This document shows positions 4,594 through 17,653 of a stretch of 64,000 nucleotides of DNA, piece by piece (position 1 is the stretch's first letter; each line of letters starts with the position of its first letter). Position numbers and translations under genes: made by a program. The notes beneath the pieces are model-generated. The model ran no database searches. It was not told where the DNA came from and saw only the letters and a list, made by a program, of their open reading frames with translations. Source of the DNA: Candidatus Tayloriibacteriota bacterium (GTDB lineage: Bacteria; Patescibacteriota; Minisyncoccia; Phycocordibacterales; PALSA-1337); the NCBI GenBank assembly GCA_016215455.1, contig JACRJP010000004.1, positions 21,132 to 85,131 of the forward strand, in the 5' to 3' direction.

Positions 4594-5136
4594 CTAGTGA
4601 ACTACTCCCAGGAGATTGAAAACCTCATAGCCCTCGTGATGCACTCTCGTATTGCCATGCTGGAGCAAAGCGATTGCGAGGAATGCTCGTGCGCGCCGGA
4701 TGAAGTCGTTGGGGTTACTTGCGCAAATCTCCACTTCGAGCTGAACTAAGTCAGCGGCTTTCTCCAGTGTCTCGCAGAAACGATCTGCGTTCGGCGCTGA
4801 TGTTGTCGGGACACGGAAGTAGAGAATTCCGCCAATCACGATGATCGCAATGAATGGGATCGACAGGCCGATAAGCCCATACTTTTCCAGGGCCATGACC
4901 GACAGGTCACCTTTCAGTATCACGAGCAGAAGAAGGAGAAGAGATGCGATGATCATTCTGATTCCGATTCTCGAGCGGCAGCGGTTTTCTTTTTCCTGTG
5001 CCATGATCGTCAATCGAGCTTCCTCGATCGGGTTCACGCCAAAGCGCTTCGTGAAAGAACTTACCCAGCCTGATGGCAGGATACCTTGGTCATGTAACTG
5101 GACCAAGCGACAGAGAGCGAGAGGGCGAGTGTTCAT
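4594..5136 (-). CDS. Hypothetical membrane protein encoded in a GC-rich insert between uvrA and uvrC. The start is uncertain.
   Basis: The minus-strand ORF has a hydrophobic stretch MIIASLLLLLLVILKG...IPFIAIIVIGGILYF. The segment 4600-5130 is visibly GC-richer than its flanks. I preferred the start at the Met of MNTRPL (5136) because the longer ORF runs into the uvrC start. Confidence 0.35.
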   Translation of the reverse strand: MNTRPLALCRLVQLHDQGILPSGWVSSFTKRFGVNPIEEARLTIMAQEKENRCRSRIGIRMIIASLLLLLLVILKGDLSVMALEKYGLIGLSIPFIAIIVIGGILYFRVPTTSAPNADRFCETLEKAADLVQLEVEICASNPNDFIRRARAFLAIALLQHGNTRVHHEGYEVFNLLGVVH

Positions 5137-5209
5137 ACATGAGATTGTGGTTTTCAAGCCAACTCTGTATACTATTGAAGCACTAATATAGAATCTGTCA
5201 AGGAATACT

Positions 5210-6439
5210 GTGAAATTAGAAAACTTTGAACAATTACATATACCTGACAACCCTGGAGTATACCTATTCTATGGTTCAACATCAGATACTCAGCCACTAT
5301 ACATTGGTCGAGCAACCTCTCTTCGTGACCGTGTACGAAGCTATTTTGGTGATGATCTCATACATACTCGTGGTCCACTACTTGTTGATCTTGTAACTAA
5401 GGCTGAAACTATCAAATGGCAAGAAACCGACTCTGTTCTTGAGGCGATTATCCTTGAAGCTAATCTCATTAAGAAGTATCAACCATATTACAATACCAAA
5501 GAGAAGGATAATAAGAGTTTTAATTATGTTGTGATTACCAAAGAAGATTTTCCTCGAATACTTGTGGTGCGTGAGAGAAATTTGGAAAAAGATGCAACAG
5601 AAAAGAATTTTAAGGTACTTCATAAGTTTGGGCCGTATCCTCACACAGGAACTTTAGTTGAAGTCCTCAAGATTATTCGAAAGATGTTTCCATATCGAGA
5701 CAAATGTACACCAAATTCTGGTAAGCCATGTTTCAATCGTCAGATCGGTCTTTGTCCTGGGGTATGTAACGGGGACATTACCTCAAAAGAGTATAAAAAG
5801 AGCATTGCTCGTATAGTTCTATTTTTTGAAGGTAAGCGTTCAAAACTCATTGCAGATCTCGAAAAGGATATGACACAAGCTGCTCATGAAGAATGCTTTG
5901 AAAAAGCAACCTCACTTCGGGGTGTACTGTACAAGATCACTCATATTCATGACATGGCAATTCTTAAAGATGAACGCAATGAGACTTCAGATACTGGTTT
6001 TCGTATTGAAGCATACGATGTGGCACATCTCGGTGGTACAAATATTGCAGGGGTCATGGTGGTTGCGCATGACGGTATTCTCGAAAAAGGAGAGTATCGA
6101 AAATTTAAAATAACAACAGCAAAGAATGCTCACGAGACTCAATCACTTCGAGAGATTTTGACTCGTCGATTTTCTCATCCTGAATGGAGATTAGCTAATA
6201 TCATCGTTGTGGATGGTAATGATGTACAGAAGAATGCAGCAGAAGCGGTTCTTGCTGAGCTTAAACTGACCATTCCTGTACTCGCAGTAGTCAAAGATGC
6301 TCGTCATAAGCCACGAGATTTTATCGGTGATCCTGAACTTATTACACAGCATCGAGCAACTATCCTTAAACTTAATGCTGAGGCACACCGTTTCTCGATT
6401 TCATACCACCGTCTTTTGCGTTCACGAATTATTCGGTGA
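5210..6439 (+). CDS. uvrC: Excinuclease ABC subunit C, short form (UvrC). It has GIY-YIG, a Cys-rich/UVR region and the RNaseH-like endonuclease domain, but no C-terminal HhH.
   Basis: GVYLFYG...YIGRATSLRDRVRSY is a GIY-YIG motif. EAYDVAHLGG marks the endonuclease domain. The start codon is GTG. The protein is 409 aa, against about 600 for a canonical UvrC. Confidence 0.85.
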   Translation: MKLENFEQLHIPDNPGVYLFYGSTSDTQPLYIGRATSLRDRVRSYFGDDLIHTRGPLLVDLVTKAETIKWQETDSVLEAIILEANLIKKYQPYYNTKEKDNKSFNYVVITKEDFPRILVVRERNLEKDATEKNFKVLHKFGPYPHTGTLVEVLKIIRKMFPYRDKCTPNSGKPCFNRQIGLCPGVCNGDITSKEYKKSIARIVLFFEGKRSKLIADLEKDMTQAAHEECFEKATSLRGVLYKITHIHDMAILKDERNETSDTGFRIEAYDVAHLGGTNIAGVMVVAHDGILEKGEYRKFKITTAKNAHETQSLREILTRRFSHPEWRLANIIVVDGNDVQKNAAEAVLAELKLTIPVLAVVKDARHKPRDFIGDPELITQHRATILKLNAEAHRFSISYHRLLRSRIIR

Positions 6440-6456
6440 TATAATGATTGTCATAT

Positions 6457-7422
6457 ATGGCACTTATTAATGTCGGCGTCCTCCGTGGAGGTCCAAGTAA
6501 TGAATATGAAGTGTCTCTCCAAACAGGGGGAGTTGTTTTACGTCATCTCGATACTAATAAATATAAACCTCATGATATTTTTATTGATAAAGAAGGTGTG
6601 TGGCATATGGGAGGTACTCCTCGCCAGCCTGAGAATATTCTTTCTCAAGTTGATGTCTTGTTTAATGCTCTGCATGGAGAATATGGTGAAGATGGTAGAA
6701 TCCAACAACTTCTTGAGAGTCATGGTGCACGCTATACCGGTTCAGATGCTCTTGGTTCTGCTTTGGGAATGAATAAAGCACTCGCAAAGCAAATATTTAA
6801 GGATCACGGGATTAAAACTGCTCACTATACGGTCATCTCAGATGCAAGTAATCTTCACCAAACAGCCGTTGAACTCTTTAGAAAGTTTCCTATGCCTGCT
6901 GTTGTTAAACCTCTCGCAAGTGGTTCATCAGTAGGGGTAACAATTGCAAAAGATTTTCATAGTCTTGAAGCAGGACTTCGTCATGCATTTCAATTTGGTG
7001 ATGCTGTTATCGTCGAAGAATTTATTCCAGGCATTGAAGCAACTTGTGGAGTTATTGAAGGATATCGAGATCATGACTTATACGCTTTACCACCAGTCGA
7101 GATTCGACCTCATGGTGATCGTTTCTTTGATTATGAAGCAAAATATCAAGGGAAGTCAGAAGAGATTTGTCCTGGTAATTTTGACCATGATACAAAGGCG
7201 ATGATTGAACACTTAGCGAAAGCGGCACATAAAGCTCTTGGTTTACGACACTATTCTCGTTCAGATTTCATTGTTTCACCACGTCGAGGTGTATATATCC
7301 TTGAAGTGAACACTCTACCCGGACTTACTGAAGAATCTCTTTTCCCAAAATCACTCAATGCTGTAGGGAGTAATCTTTCGCATTTCTTTGATCATCTCAT
7401 TGAACTTGCGTTGCAAAAATAA
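6457..7422 (+). CDS. ddl: D-alanine--D-alanine ligase.
   Basis: ATP-grasp fold with VLRGGPSNEYEVSL and EVNTLPG. The ORF track starts it at TTG 6448. The ATG at 6457 is more likely. Confidence 0.9.
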   Translation: MALINVGVLRGGPSNEYEVSLQTGGVVLRHLDTNKYKPHDIFIDKEGVWHMGGTPRQPENILSQVDVLFNALHGEYGEDGRIQQLLESHGARYTGSDALGSALGMNKALAKQIFKDHGIKTAHYTVISDASNLHQTAVELFRKFPMPAVVKPLASGSSVGVTIAKDFHSLEAGLRHAFQFGDAVIVEEFIPGIEATCGVIEGYRDHDLYALPPVEIRPHGDRFFDYEAKYQGKSEEICPGNFDHDTKAMIEHLAKAAHKALGLRHYSRSDFIVSPRRGVYILEVNTLPGLTEESLFPKSLNAVGSNLSHFFDHLIELALQK

Positions 7423-7466
7423 AAAAAAGAAGGTAGAATGTTTTGCGTTATAGTATGTGCTGTATT

Positions 7467-7539
7467 GGGCCCTTAGCTTAGTTGGTAGAGCGCCTCATTT
7501 GCAATGAGGAGGTCGCCGGTTCGAATCCGGCAGGGTCCA
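7467..7539 (+). tRNA. tRNA-Cys (anticodon GCA). The CCA tail is not encoded.
   Basis: It folds as a cloverleaf: acceptor GGGCCCT/AGGGTCC, anticodon stem CCTCA/TGAGG, loop TTGCAAT, T-arm GCCGG-TTCGAAT-CCGGC. Confidence 0.85.
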
Positions 7540-7568
7540 CAAAACAAATCGGTAGAGCAAATAATATT

Positions 7569-8225
7569 ATGAATATTGAAAACGGAATAAATGCAAAAGA
7601 GCAACTAAATCCGGTTTCAATAGAAGAACCTACCTATATTTATAAAAGAAGTGGAGAAACCCTTACTGTTACTCCCGAAGATGAAAAAAGATATAGTGAA
7701 GCAGTTACTGCATTTATTGCAGCCAAGAATCAATTTGAAAACGACAGAGAAAGTAGTGTAATTATTGAAGAATACGTTGAAAAGTTTTGGCGAAGTGCTT
7801 ATGAGAATCTTCCTGAGATACCAGCAGGATATGTGCGTCTTTTACATCATACATTTAGTTCAAGTCAGGCAGAAGGAATCCGTCAAAATGGATTAAGATA
7901 CGGGGGAACCACTATGGGTAGTTATAGTTATCTTAATAAGATTGCATACACCGCTAATATTGTGCGAGATATGAATGAAAGGGATGAAAGCGGAAATCGT
8001 ATTTTGTATAACAGTCGTGTAGAGACCCAGAAAGAAGGGGTTGTTGTGATTTTCGATCTTCCAGAAGAAGATTTGAAGAAATATGAATATAACAATGGAG
8101 CACCTGGTGTGATCCCAGCTGAATTTTTTGTAGCTGCTTTACCAGAAAGAACACCTATTGTTTGGATTAACTACGAAAAAAGAATTTTTGCCCCGTTATC
8201 GCAAAGATTTAATGAGAAACTGTGA
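7569..8225 (+). CDS. Hypothetical protein. It is the only gene inside the tRNA-Cys-flanked insert.
   Basis: The ORF begins MNIENGINAKEQ. The track ORF 7482..8225 starts inside the tRNA, so I trimmed it to the first Met after the tRNA. The sequence is AT-rich and K/E-rich, with no recognisable domain. Confidence 0.5.
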   Translation: MNIENGINAKEQLNPVSIEEPTYIYKRSGETLTVTPEDEKRYSEAVTAFIAAKNQFENDRESSVIIEEYVEKFWRSAYENLPEIPAGYVRLLHHTFSSSQAEGIRQNGLRYGGTTMGSYSYLNKIAYTANIVRDMNERDESGNRILYNSRVETQKEGVVVIFDLPEEDLKKYEYNNGAPGVIPAEFFVAALPERTPIVWINYEKRIFAPLSQRFNEKL

Positions 8226-8231
8226 TTTCTA

Positions 8232-8268
8232 GATGAGGTTGCTGGTTCGAATCCGGCAGAGTCTATAA
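8232..8268 (+). repeat. Degenerate direct repeat of the 3' half of tRNA-Cys (an att-like site).
   Basis: gatgagg..ttgctGGTTCGAATCCGGCAGagtctat aligns with tRNA positions 7505-7540. The 16 nt GGTTCGAATCCGGCAG match exactly. Both copies are followed by aaaa. Confidence 0.7.
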
Positions 8269-8314
8269 AATATCTCTCCTATACTAATCTTGGTTTTAAT
8301 GATTAAATTATAGT

Positions 8315-9403
8315 ATGAAAAAAATCATTTGGTCTGCAGTTGTTGTTATTATAATTGTGATAGGTTGGTTATTTACTAACAACAAACAGTCTAAATTAGT
8401 AACTAGTCACTCAATTAAGATTGGTGTCATAGCTCCACTTTCTGGCCCTCTAGCAGAATACGGAGAAGCATTTCAGAATGGTATCATCCTTGCGCAAGAG
8501 AAACTTAAGAATAACAAACTCCAATTTGTTTTTGAGGATAGTGCATATGACTCAGGTAAGGCAATTGCTGCTTTTAACAAGCTAAAAGATTTTGATAAGG
8601 TAAATGTGATTATCAACTGGGGTGATCCTACATCGCAAGCCATTGCACCTCTTGTGAAAACTAATTCGATTCCTTTTATCGCGGTGACAACTATTCCATC
8701 AGTTGCTGAACAAAGTCCGTATATCATCAGAACCCTAAATCGTTCAGAAGACGCGGCGGGAGCAACTTGGGAATATTTAAGGTCAAAAAACTTTAAAAAT
8801 GTTGGTATTGTAAAGCTTGAAACACCGTATTTTAATAGTCTTGTAGATTCGCTTATCAAGACAAAACAAACTGACGAAAAAGTTACTATTATTGATACCT
8901 ATCTTTCATTTGGTGATAAAGATTTCAGAACATCGATTAGTAAAATAAAAAATACATCGAAGTATGATGTTATTGGTGTATTCCTTGCGGGAGGTCAAAT
9001 CAGCCAGTTTTATAAACAGGCAAGTACTCTCGAAATGAAAACTCCTACATTTGGGACGGATTTTTTTGAAAGTCAGAGTGATATTGATGCCGCAGGAACA
9101 ACTATGAATGGAGTGGTGTATGTAAACTATGATGTTTCAGATGATTTTAGAACTGAATATCAAAATAGATTCAAAAATATAAGCCAAATTGCATACGCTG
9201 GTAATGGGTACGATACTGTAATGATGCTTAATAGTATTCCAGACGCAGATAAAGATTCAGTTATTAATACTCTTAAGGCTGTAAAAGATTACTCGGGAGT
9301 AGTTGGAAAATGGAATTTACTCGAAACAACCACTGATCGCTATCTTTCATCACCGTTCCATATAAAAATTATCCAGGACGGGATAATAAAAACTCTTAAT
9401 TAA
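8315..9403 (+). CDS. ABC transporter substrate-binding protein, type-1 periplasmic binding fold, resembling Leu/Ile/Val-binding proteins.
   Basis: An N-terminal TM or signal anchor is followed by IGVIAPLSGPLAEYGEAFQNG, characteristic of the Peripla_BP_6/LivJ family. Confidence 0.7.
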   Translation: MKKIIWSAVVVIIIVIGWLFTNNKQSKLVTSHSIKIGVIAPLSGPLAEYGEAFQNGIILAQEKLKNNKLQFVFEDSAYDSGKAIAAFNKLKDFDKVNVIINWGDPTSQAIAPLVKTNSIPFIAVTTIPSVAEQSPYIIRTLNRSEDAAGATWEYLRSKNFKNVGIVKLETPYFNSLVDSLIKTKQTDEKVTIIDTYLSFGDKDFRTSISKIKNTSKYDVIGVFLAGGQISQFYKQASTLEMKTPTFGTDFFESQSDIDAAGTTMNGVVYVNYDVSDDFRTEYQNRFKNISQIAYAGNGYDTVMMLNSIPDADKDSVINTLKAVKDYSGVVGKWNLLETTTDRYLSSPFHIKIIQDGIIKTLN

Positions 9404-11515: not shown

Positions 11516-12025
11516 ATGACGATTGACGCCAATGCTCTAGCAGACATCACCTCCAGAAGAACTACTGGAAACATCGTCGCTCATGAGGAATTCAGTATTG
11601 AGCCTTTTCTCCCAGCACGTGCCTGTGCACGTGATTGGACTGTCGTTTATGACGGAGACCTGTTACAACGTCCGACTCTCACGACAAGTTTTTCATACGG
11701 GCTTAAACTTAGAGAGCACTCCGATCCAGCTCCAGATACACGACAATTTCATTCGTGTGGGGGACTGACCCTTATGCATCTTTGGAGAAACCCACATCTC
11801 ATTCCATTGTCATGGCAGAATACAGAGATGTATGAAGAGTTCTTTTTCGATGGACTCACTCTACGTCGACAAAAGAAATCACCACGTAGAACAACTGATT
11901 TTGTGATTTCCTTGTTCTATGATCCCAGGAAAAGACGCTGGTTCTCTAGCTTAAAAATATTTGGTGCTGAACGGTATGCTGGACAGATGTCAGTCGTCCT
12001 TCCGTTACATCAAGTCACTGTTTGA
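11516..12025 (+). CDS. Hypothetical protein in a GC-rich segment.
   Basis: 169 aa ORF. Codon usage is rich in CGC, GGC and GCG, unlike the flanking genes. Confidence 0.4.
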   Translation: MTIDANALADITSRRTTGNIVAHEEFSIEPFLPARACARDWTVVYDGDLLQRPTLTTSFSYGLKLREHSDPAPDTRQFHSCGGLTLMHLWRNPHLIPLSWQNTEMYEEFFFDGLTLRRQKKSPRRTTDFVISLFYDPRKRRWFSSLKIFGAERYAGQMSVVLPLHQVTV

Positions 12026-12128
12026 TTTTTATTATTTCGAATTCAGTAGACACCTTGACTACGTAGTATATTCTGTGTTAATTTCACAAATAGACCGTTA
12101 CTCACATTCACCAAAAAAGAAGCTACGC

Positions 12129-12905
12129 ATGGCAAAAACGAAAGAATCAGGACGGCTTAGGAAAGAACGGGTCGTCTGGAAGGCACACGAATTGCAAGCT
12201 GTCATCGACGCTGCGGTTCTCGCTAGCCTTGAAGACATTGAGCATGTTTGGGTCTATTTGGCTCGCGGACAGCAAGTCCTACCCAAGGAACGCCACCGTG
12301 TCATAGGTGGTAAACATGTTGTCACCCCAGAGATTCTCGCTGCTTTTCAAGTAGCTCGGAAAGCACTGATCGACAGAGAAGTGCCTGCTCCGCCGCCGCC
12401 AGTTGAGATTCCTGTGCCGGTTGAACAAAGTCGGGAACAAGTTCTTGAAAGCCTGACTGATGCCGAGCTTATCCAGCTTGCAGTGAAGCGATTTACTCCT
12501 CTCATCGAAGGCCTTCGAGCGCTCGGTGAAGTTGGAGGAAAAAAAGAAACCCCACCACCAAAGCCGGTGGTAGAATGTCCTCCCGCTGCAATCCTGACTC
12601 CGAGTCCAGCAAAACTCCCGAAGCCAACGGTAGTATTTCTGTTCGGATTCGCCCCTGATCAAGAGGTTGAGATTCGAAGGAGGGCCGGCAGTTTCAACCT
12701 GCAACTCATCTTCGCACGACAAGAAAGGGGAGATGCGCCTCCCAAGGTGCCGGTATGCAACTGGTGCATCGTTGCGGAGTCAGATCTGAGTAGGCGGGCG
12801 AGAACCGCCATTAAGGCGCGTATCGATGATGCGCATATACTTTACATTCGTAACGTGGATACGACAATGCAAAAATTGGCAGACATCAATTCTCGAACGA
12901 AATGA
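12129..12905 (+). CDS. Hypothetical protein with a Pro-rich linker, in a GC-rich segment.
   Basis: The ORF begins MAKTKESGRL and contains PAPPPPVEIPVPV and KKETPPPKP. I trimmed the track ORF 11961..12905 to the first Met after the upstream stop. Confidence 0.45.
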   Translation: MAKTKESGRLRKERVVWKAHELQAVIDAAVLASLEDIEHVWVYLARGQQVLPKERHRVIGGKHVVTPEILAAFQVARKALIDREVPAPPPPVEIPVPVEQSREQVLESLTDAELIQLAVKRFTPLIEGLRALGEVGGKKETPPPKPVVECPPAAILTPSPAKLPKPTVVFLFGFAPDQEVEIRRRAGSFNLQLIFARQERGDAPPKVPVCNWCIVAESDLSRRARTAIKARIDDAHILYIRNVDTTMQKLADINSRTK

Positions 12906-16843: not shown

Positions 16844-17653
16844 ATGAAGACGCCTAAAACGTCCCCGCGCAAACGCTCCGTCACGCCTGCACCTCCGACT
16901 AACGGGACACGCTCCCGTGGCGACATTGAATCGGTTCTGAAACAAACGGGCGATAAGAAGCCTGTGGCAAAGAAGAAGGCTGCGAAGTCTTCTACTGCCA
17001 CTGAGGTCCCGCCTCCGCCTTTCAGCCGGGAGACGGCACCACATGCCGTCACTGCCGAAGCCCGGAAGTGGCTCAGCAACGAGCGGGCAATTTACGGGGC
17101 TGGTTATGCTCCGATTCTCTGGGTCAGCGCCCCGAAATTGTGGGATCTCGCTGAGACCTTGGGTCGCGAACTCACGTTGGATGAGGTCAAATTCCTCGTC
17201 CAGGCAGATGGGGATATGGAGCAGTGCTTCATCGGAAAGGCTCCTTTCCAGCCGATTCGCTACTTGGTGATCACGCGAGTGACCCTGGATCTGCTGAAAA
17301 AAGCAGGAGCATTCGAAAAAATCCCCAAAGAAAAACTTCTCTGGGGCGGCGCGTTCGCCATCAATCAGGAAGGGAATGGTCTCATTCCCCTGTCTGGTGC
17401 GCGCTTCTGGAACGTGCGTGGTGACTTTGCGCTCAAGGATAGCGCGATGGTGCGTGCCTGGCTTATTTCGAACGAAAATCCTGCTCTGCGTTCATGGCCC
17501 CAGAGTCGGGCCGATGCAGAAGAAGGTATTCGGCGGATTGCCGATGCCAAGGCACGAGCCCGGCACACCCACGAGAACTTGGTTCAGGTGGACATCGTGC
17601 TTGCTGGGGCGATCCGTAGTCGTCCCAAGCATAAGCATGGCAATAAGAAGTAG
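16844..17653 (+). CDS. Hypothetical protein encoded in a strongly GC-rich segment of about 60% GC. It has a basic K/P-rich N-terminal tail.
   Basis: I counted 36 G+C in the first 60 nt. The N-terminus reads MKTPKTSPRKRSVTPAPPTNGTRSRGD...KKPVAKKKAAKSS, and a globular domain follows. Confidence 0.6.
   Translation: MKTPKTSPRKRSVTPAPPTNGTRSRGDIESVLKQTGDKKPVAKKKAAKSSTATEVPPPPFSRETAPHAVTAEARKWLSNERAIYGAGYAPILWVSAPKLWDLAETLGRELTLDEVKFLVQADGDMEQCFIGKAPFQPIRYLVITRVTLDLLKKAGAFEKIPKEKLLWGGAFAINQEGNGLIPLSGARFWNVRGDFALKDSAMVRAWLISNENPALRSWPQSRADAEEGIRRIADAKARARHTHENLVQVDIVLAGAIRSRPKHKHGNKK

Follow-up and report, generated by a model that had tools for sequence, protein, structure and literature searches.

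A one-gene islet between tRNA-Ala(UGC) and a degenerate copy of its 3' half in a Paceibacterota genome

How did a single protein-coding gene come to lie between an intact tRNA gene and a second, degenerate copy of the 3' half of the same tRNA gene? The question is raised by a stretch of 64,000 nucleotides of a Candidatus Tayloriibacteriota bacterium (NCBI GenBank assembly GCA_016215455.1, contig JACRJP010000004.1, positions 21,132 to 85,131 of the forward strand), which was analysed as a whole and is called the window in the following. The islet in question is found directly behind ddl, the gene encoding D-Ala-D-Ala ligase. The reading that we favour, with moderate confidence, is that it would be an integrase-less remnant of an integration at the tRNA site, comparable to the cis-mobilizable elements (CIMEs) of other bacteria, in which one selected cargo gene has been kept.

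The tRNA-Ala(UGC) gene and the decaying copy of its 3' half

The window contains a single tRNA gene, on the + strand (ARAGORN; Rfam RF00005 tRNA, 74.3 bits). An intact tRNA had been reported at this place in a first-pass annotation that was made from the sequence alone, and both programs put one there, starting at 7467 and ending at 7539 or 7540; the annotation had named it tRNA-Cys(GCA), having registered the loop off by one base. With TT-TGC-AA as its anticodon loop and with G3:U70, the alanine identity pair, in its acceptor stem (GGGCCCT/AGGGTCC), the gene encodes tRNA-Ala(UGC). Direct reading of the sequence, ARAGORN and Rfam together rule out tRNA-Cys(GCA) by the UGC anticodon and the G3:U70 pair.

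The downstream copy of the 3' part of the tRNA, which the first-pass annotation had also noticed, belongs to a direct repeat of 39 nt, the two copies of which are spaced 726 nt apart and are identical in 33 of the 39 positions (85%). Copy 1 runs from within the 3' strand of the anticodon stem through variable loop, T arm and 3' acceptor strand to the discriminator and a CAAAA trailer. From tRNA positions ~40-41, within the same stem strand, to 4-5 nt beyond the discriminator, copy 2 is similar to the tRNA. The 16-mer GGTTCGAATCCGGCAG occurs exactly twice in the 64 kb, where the chance expectation is 0 even when up to 2 mismatches are allowed, and in a local alignment of the tRNA 3' half to the window the remnant scores 24; no score above 12 was reached in 20 shuffles, and the next real match has about 10 at most. 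Two of the features by which Islander recognises an island are thereby present: an intact tRNA gene (tDNA) with a cognate fragment on the same (+) strand, and a 3' fragment that has its 5' boundary at a canonical crossover place (anticodon loop, or T-loop/junction) and reaches the end of the tRNA or passes it.

The T arm varies little from one tRNA to the next, so that short chance matches to GGTTCGAATCC are possible, and the remnant might be taken for a chance similarity or an artefact of assembly. This explanation is refuted by the shuffle statistics (0 matches expected, an alignment score twice that of the best shuffle) and by the recurrence of the arrangement in other samples, from which three assemblies of the species (L014, L095 and L096) were made independently, and we attach practically no probability to it.

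From which tRNA does the remnant derive? Compared with 102 tRNAs of the window and of related loci, it best matches the tRNA-Ala(UGC) of its own genome, with which it shares lineage-specific bases in the anticodon-stem strand (ATGAGG/GAGG) and in the T-stem (CCGGCAG). A Val-CAC, Pro or Ala-GGC/CGC tRNA is excluded as the source by the same comparison, which also yields no sign of the unrelated tRNA that the first pass had named as the origin that would overturn its own reading. When the four strains were compared, all differences between remnant and tRNA turned out to be GC->AT changes, 3 of them common to all four strains and the others strain-specific (3 extras in the window and L095, 2 in L014 and L096). 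Because all differences are of this one type and some are restricted to particular strains, the remnant must, judged from the alignments, have started as a faithful copy of the 3' half of this very tRNA and be drifting now without constraint.

There is no tRNA 5' half on the 5' side of the remnant, and that place is occupied by the conserved C-terminal coding end of the family to which the enclosed open reading frame (ORF) belongs. A copy of the tRNA 5' half was found on neither strand of the window, and local alignment recovered no further copies of the putative attachment (att) site and no larger island within the 64 kb. The remnant RNA shows no excess of folding energy over shuffles (z = +0.32) and a scan of the interval from 7300 to 8450 returned no terminator-like sites; on these two grounds a role of the remnant as terminator or structured RNA is ruled out.

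Two observations concern the strains themselves. Between 8205 and 8245, a patch that covers the stop codon of the ORF and the 5' part of the remnant, window and L095 differ from L014 and L096 by 8 differences in ~35 nt, unlike the ORF as a whole, for which the synonymous divergence between strains is only ~0.03; L096 is mosaic, and the patch could be either a recombination tract or the product of local hypermutation. Furthermore, the Logan assemblies L014, L095 and L096 all break within the tRNA 5' half (window-equivalent 7467-7486), which is likely due to k-mers shared with the tRNA-Ala genes of co-occurring relatives; heterogeneity of the population at the tRNA site may be an alternative source of the breaks.

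The interval between the repeats is occupied by one ORF, as had been reported in the first pass, which had counted 219 aa where the ORF encodes 218. It starts 24 nt after copy 1 and stops 6 nt ahead of copy 2, and the final ~12 nt of the leading spacer (AAATAATATT) are common to the window and the ortholog in L001, as DNA alignment shows. The earlier description of the insert as AT-rich is true only marginally, because its GC content of 35.6%, compared with 41% for the window, is matched by that of the adjacent region of the gene for a substrate-binding protein (SBP; 35.2%). As no terminator separates it from the tRNA, the ORF is probably read through from the promoter of the tRNA. A promoter-like site 5' of the tRNA (TTGCAA-17-TAGAAT) is a possible promoter of the tRNA and, via read-through, of the ORF; the consensus scan gave no more such sites than are found in shuffles, and the site is weak evidence for that reason. 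The coordinates of these features are collected in Table 1, together with the junctions that are predicted for the empty site and the excised circle.

Table 1. Features of the islet and its flanks, in window positions, with predicted junctions
Feature	Position	Strand	Source
ddl (D-Ala-D-Ala ligase), left flank, end gene of the uvrC-ddl-tRNA-Ala(UGC) block	6448..7422	+	tblastn synteny
Promoter-like site TTGCAA-17-TAGAAT, 5' of the tRNA	7411..7439	+	consensus scan
tRNA-Ala(UGC), intact, CCA not encoded	7467..7540	+	ARAGORN, Rfam RF00005, direct reading
Direct repeat copy 1, attL-like	7506..7544	+	repeat search, alignment
Spacer / 5' leader, 24 nt, from repeat to ORF start	7545..7568	+	DNA alignment
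Cargo gene, 218 aa	7569..8225	+	ORF list
Direct repeat copy 2, attR-like, putatively displaced tRNA-Ala(UGC) 3' fragment	8232..8270	+	repeat search, alignment
Substrate-binding protein (SBP) gene, Peripla_BP_6, right flank	8315..9403	+	Pfam
Empty-site junction, predicted: tRNA 5' half + one 3' half + flank TATCTCTCC...			
Excised-circle junction, predicted: ...AAACTGTGATTTCTA + repeat + CAAATCGGTAGAGC...			

Elsewhere in the window, ORFs that have no Pfam match were seen in three places: a pair of overlapping ORFs (169 and 314 aa; 11516-12905) with a GC content of 44-48% as compared with 41% for the window, which has an ABC transporter on one side and an FtsX-type permease on the other and is also called in L095 and L096; an ORF of 269 aa (16844-17653) in the most GC-rich kilobase of the window (50%); and an ORF of 218 aa on the - strand (4594-5250), between uvrA and uvrC.

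The ddl-linked tRNA-Ala(UGC) site across Paceibacterota

Scans with Ddl place the genome in the Paceibacterota (CPR/Patescibacteria). For the genetic context of the tRNA, about 45 loci of this phylum were compared by tblastn with uvrC and ddl. The uvrC-ddl-tRNA-Ala(UGC) block is conserved phylum-wide, with tRNA-Ala(UGC) located 3' of ddl in most loci, and the synteny stops exactly at the tRNA: in no other species sampled is it followed by the SBP gene or by the ORF. The ORF is absent from the ddl loci of all other species sampled, and its presence at this locus is lineage-specific.

For every tRNA of 182 loci a search was made for displaced copies of its own halves, and such self-fragments were recovered at about 9 of the 64 tRNA-Ala(UGC) loci. 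The breakpoint in the anticodon loop that marks the window locus is also found in L025, L031 and L132/L133, and the same tRNA site has been used recurrently within the phylum, once by an integrase. The latter case is L025 (5373-6583), where a tRNA-Ala 5' half ending in ...TTTGCAAT lies at the conserved place behind ddl and is followed by the gene for a tyrosine integrase of 299 aa (PF00589, E = 5e-29) and then, on the opposite strand, by a complete tRNA-Ala(UGC). In L132 (5674-6062; also L133:1209-1587) a displaced 5' part of tRNA-Ala, broken at the anticodon loop and carrying a 43-nt hairpin insertion in its D-loop, is directly followed by an intact GIY-YIG gene of 79 aa, the end of which overlaps a complete tRNA-Ala(UGC). 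A comparable pseudo-5' part with D-loop insertion was seen in L139 (5420-5560). In L031 (4929-5140) the old tRNA-Ala is split within the anticodon by an insert of ~118 nt that is essentially a complete, different tRNA-Ala(UGC). According to ARAGORN, the two halves give a valid tRNA-Ala(UGC) when they are rejoined and the missing anticodon base G is supplied, and a tRNA-Val(UAC) when they are joined directly; the locus looks like a relic of the insertion of a replacement tRNA, in the manner of tRNA-dependent lysogeny.

Four independent Paceibacterota carry a non-coding element of ~115-140 nt behind tRNA-Ala(UGC) (L022:5116-5278, L126:5309-5479, L139:5667-5828 and L143:2711-2856), a type that is absent from the window. 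Its parts are the final ~20 nt of the tRNA in inverted orientation, internal hairpins, which include a shared motif resembling GTTGAGCATTTT and a small UGUA-loop hairpin, and the 3' end of the tRNA in direct orientation; in L126, L139 and L143 it opens with a terminator hairpin. The inverted and direct copies pair as a long closing helix, the minimum free energy lies far below that of shuffles (z -4.1 to -8.4) and a search of these elements against Rfam gave no match; they may be structured RNAs or, alternatively, att-bounded miniature elements. A last observation on the site concerns L044 (5029-5102), whose post-ddl tRNA is identical to the tRNA-Ala(UGC) of L042 and L030, G3:U70 included, except for its anticodon, UUC (Glu), which is either an error of sequencing or assembly or a natural anticodon mutant of a tRNA with alanine identity.

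The cargo gene, its relatives and its product

The cargo ORF is intact and conserved from end to end with its homologs, and the ratio of non-synonymous to synonymous substitution rates (dN/dS) lies between 0.16 and 0.38 in every pairwise comparison, which means purifying selection. Its family is extremely rare: only five close homologs were found among 5.8 billion proteins, and among 1.84 billion cluster representatives a search with a profile gave eight matches. The family is characterized by the motifs G-Y-x-R-L-L-H-x-T, S-T-A, VVFD[LV]P and PG[VI]IPA. The remote members delimit an alpha/beta core of ~115-130 aa in which R90, H93, T128 and P183 never vary and T95 and D163 hardly do.

The genetic contexts of the homologs differ from that of the window. 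In three other lineages the homolog is located directly 3' of a highly conserved adenylate-kinase-like gene of 355 aa. This gene is 91% identical between lineages whose ORF proteins (P0004 and P0005) match the window protein at 66% and 60%, respectively. A functional link of the ORF with it was considered and rejected, the gene being of the housekeeping type and absent from the window. In a fourth lineage the homolog lies in a variable region with DDE transposase, NYN, HD and GIY-YIG genes. The DNA homology of the homologs to the window ends at the borders of the ORF, apart from the ~12 nt upstream, which indicates that the bare gene was relocated. Neither a tRNA fragment nor flanking repeats were found at the other close homologs, and no convincing terminal repeats are carried by the gene in L001. 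The insert holds no second ORF that could be a linked partner gene, and the partners are different ones in every other context.

Three remote members were seen in settings of their own. P0006 (L177:5206-5859), in another small-genome bacterium, has its start 5 nt behind an intact tRNA-Leu(CAA) that lies on the same strand; its N-terminus in the database is translated tRNA, and the contig ends 82 nt past the stop codon. In P0012 the core domain of the family (~120 aa) takes up residues 237-384 of a phage tape-measure protein of 1,890 aa, within the N-terminal coiled-coil region; the assignment follows from PF10145 and PHROG tape-measure families. The gene of P0011 (L183:8001-10079) is convergent to that of an RtcB RNA ligase at a distance of 16 nt, a single instance. 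The remaining remote members are stand-alone genes in ordinary neighbourhoods, and a search of phage and viral collections found no members. The family is a very rare and uncharacterised one, which is shared with a phage tape-measure protein.

What might the product do? The first-pass annotation had seen no recognisable domain, and Pfam, PHROGs, PADLOC and NCBIfam indeed gave no family match for the ORF. Its suggestion of a toxin, an immunity gene or a defence gene gained no support from these collections (0 families in PADLOC, no defence or toxin family match). A profile search of the PDB returned chance matches only (SH3). The remote-homology search and structure prediction that had been proposed at the same time led somewhat further, to a predicted model and a fold candidate in place of a family. 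An AlphaFold2 model reached a mean predicted local distance difference test (pLDDT) score of 78 with an alignment of 13 sequences (37 with 6 sequences), and Foldseek comparison of the model to the PDB and BFVD retrieved nothing. Within the family the R and the H-x-T motif are placed on the first core strand, which is followed by a helix ending in G-L; the S-T motif is found at a later strand, with T128 invariant (S/Y-T), and an acidic residue at ~156, ahead of the VVFD strand, is present in about 10 of the 13 family members only. In enzymes of the ADP-ribosyltransferase (ART) fold the catalytic triads on strands beta1, beta2 and beta5 are H-H-h, H-Y-[QED] or R-[ST]-E, and the ART toxin TreTu is undetectable by sequence analysis (PMC9825190). 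We regard a divergent ART-like fold as a weak lead and not as a finding. Among the Pfam, NCBIfam, PADLOC and PHROGs matches there was no ART family, neither for the ORF nor for the 13 family members. The minimal ADP-ribosyltransferase toxins TreTu and TreX and the RNA 2'-phosphotransferase Tpt1 would be the comparators for such a candidate, and any ART-like biochemistry of the cargo is conjectural.

Origin of the islet and comparison with known systems

The favoured reading can be put as a sequence of steps. An element would have recombined with the tRNA-Ala(UGC) gene at or beside the anticodon loop, presumably by the action of an integrase, and the new 3' half would have come from the DNA of the element, with the result that the tRNA stayed functional. 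The former 3' half, which makes the downstream copy the presumed original, would have been displaced by 726 bp and have decayed since by GC->AT changes. All DNA between the att copies would then have been lost, or never have been there, except for the cargo gene, held by selection and possibly co-transcribed with the tRNA. Having no recombinase of its own, the islet would now be fixed, and at most it could be moved by the cognate integrase of another element, as CIMEs are. The product of the cargo gene is predicted to be a small cytosolic alpha/beta protein, possibly a divergent enzyme of the ART fold.

Several results weigh against this reading. The 64-kb window yielded neither a tyrosine nor a serine recombinase, in agreement with the first pass: Pfam analysis of the ORF (no Phage_integrase match) and of ten neighbouring genes, all of them ordinary, revealed no integrase, and tblastn of the L025 integrase against the window had no match. 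An empty site was not found either. The comparison of the ddl-to-SBP interval that had been proposed in the first pass showed the insert in 4 of the 4 available conspecific assemblies, and the other species lack the ORF together with the downstream flank. A scan of metagenomes for the junction pattern of an empty site had 0 matches, an exact-protein look-up of Ddl returned no record, and the look-up of the SBP gave only occupied strains, with contigs broken inside the tRNA. The next relatives are distant (Ddl identity of at most 65% among species representatives and 59% among metagenome contigs), and the nearest other species, which have no ORF at their ddl loci, do not have the downstream flank of the window either. 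No viral or phage record with the cargo family or an attP-like copy of the tRNA end was recovered as a viral or excised form, and most members of the cargo family do not adjoin a tRNA. Finally, the repeats hug the ORF (24 nt before its start and 6 nt after its stop), so that decay from a larger island would need deletions ending almost exactly at the borders of the gene. Our confidence is kept at a moderate level because of the missing recombinase, empty site and viral or excised form and because of this snug fit. Of the attL/attR interpretation made in the first pass, the direct 3' fragment of the tRNA's own sequence and the shared breakpoint stand, and the integrase, the empty site and the excised form were not found.

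Other explanations have to be weighed against the same evidence. A tandem pair of tRNA-Ala(UGC) genes, or of tRNA-Ala and another tRNA, might have decayed, the ORF having arrived between them by a separate route and the 5' half of the second gene having been lost through its insertion or through a deletion. Such a history would agree with the Val-CAC, Pro or Ala-GGC/CGC tRNAs that relatives often have shortly after tRNA-Ala(UGC), and with ARAGORN, which still calls a tRNA-Ala when the intact 5' half is combined with the remnant. We nevertheless think it unlikely: the remnant is closer to its own Ala(UGC) than to Val, Pro or any further Ala isoacceptor, a tandem Ala(UGC) pair occurs in none of the 64 loci, the 3' end of the ORF is conserved family sequence and not derived from a tRNA, and the breakpoint coincides with the anticodon-loop breaks of L025, L031 and L132, which random deletion would not predict. 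The GIY-YIG gene of L132/L133, which starts exactly at the broken anticodon loop of the tRNA-Ala 5' half, suggests a homing-type insertion, by which, without any integrase, an endonuclease would have cut at the anticodon loop and repair of the break would have copied part of the tRNA and the cargo while the old 3' half was left behind. For the window locus this seems improbable, as the ORF shows no nuclease signature (Pfam, PHROGs, NCBIfam, PADLOC, PDB profile and fold searches), the insert contains no nuclease gene, and homing normally replaces sequence and does not duplicate 39 nt of its target.

The close fit of the repeats around the ORF, the homolog that begins 5 nt after tRNA-Leu(CAA), the lack of a terminator between tRNA and ORF and the repeated use of the same tRNA site within the phylum would all suit an active minimal cassette, i.e. 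a promoterless ORF with a tRNA 3' half that is integrated in trans by an integrase from elsewhere and expressed from the tRNA promoter, like an integron cassette. Since the remnant decays and varies between strains, it is not a conserved recombination site; moreover its folding does not exceed that of shuffles, neither tRNA fragment nor flanking repeats accompany the other close homologs, and there is no second cassette or array in the window, so that we hold an active cassette to be improbable as well. A bolder version, to which we give very little probability, is that of a living cassette that docks phylum-wide at the ddl-linked tRNA-Ala(UGC), alongside the inserts with integrase, GIY-YIG gene, replacement tRNA or ~140-nt element, and whose cargo would be a minimal ADP-ribosyltransferase-type effector, not recognised before, that is also found in phage tape-measure proteins. 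Tandem duplication, homing and living cassette each are without positive evidence at the window locus.

If the islet is the remnant of a tRNA-site integration, as we favour, its mechanism is a textbook one, in which a displaced tRNA fragment marks the integration event, and no general concept is changed by it. What the locus would document is tRNA-site integration, and decay to an islet of one gene, in a genome of the Paceibacterota, that is, of the candidate phyla radiation (CPR), for which mobile elements are to our knowledge poorly described. Beyond this, the ddl-linked tRNA-Ala(UGC) of the relatives constitutes a recurrent insertion hotspot (integrase, GIY-YIG nuclease, replacement tRNA and ~140-nt structured element), and the retained gene represents an extremely rare, uncharacterised family under selection that may hide a cryptic ART-fold enzyme. 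The more interesting material is to be found in the relatives, in the form of the hotspot, its replacement-tRNA inserts and its structured ~140-nt elements, and in the biochemistry of the cargo family.

The islet resembles the tRNA-integrated genomic islands and prophages that are collected in Islander (class A, anticodon-centred, of Williams 2002) in that an intact tDNA is accompanied by a direct, cognate 3' fragment, which runs from the anticodon stem-loop to just past the tRNA 3' end, and in that the bracketed DNA is foreign to the locus. A 3' fragment with its break centred on the anticodon is the commonest island signature: a 3' fragment accompanies 3760 of 3919 islands, and site A is used by 2083 (PMC4383910). 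Unlike these islands, which are typically multi-kb, the islet measures 0.73 kb, has one gene and no integrase gene, and its att fragment is degenerate (85% identity), without a documented presence/absence polymorphism.

CIMEs are elements between two att sites from which the integration and transfer genes have been lost; by definition they keep these sites intact and can be mobilised by a cognate integrative and conjugative element (ICE) (PMC6323972). Like them, the islet is flanked by attL/attR-like repeats and has neither recombinase nor transfer gene, and it plausibly derives from a larger integrative element in the same way. It differs in that its distal site is only 85% identical and drifting, and in that no cognate element is known in the genome; we know of no ICEs described in CPR bacteria. 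The one finding that speaks for mobilisation of the CIME type comes from another species, L025, in which an integrase occupies the same tRNA site. From an integron cassette, in which an attC site (an imperfect palindrome folding as a single strand) lies behind a promoterless ORF and which depends on an IntI integrase/attI platform, the islet differs by a remnant that has no excess structure, by the lack of an integrase and by its being a single unit and no array.

In tRNA-dependent lysogeny (Guerrero-Bustamante & Hatfull 2024, PMC10865867), a tRNA of the host is disrupted by an element that supplies a replacement. L025 and L031 among the relatives resemble this, with a host tRNA-Ala that is split at the anticodon loop and not rebuilt and an insert that contains a complete replacement tRNA-Ala, to which the insert of L025 adds a tyrosine integrase; integrating elements thus use the site in this phylum. 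The window locus, unlike these, has one tRNA only and no displaced 5' half, and for these reasons fits the classical mode of integration in which the tRNA is restored.

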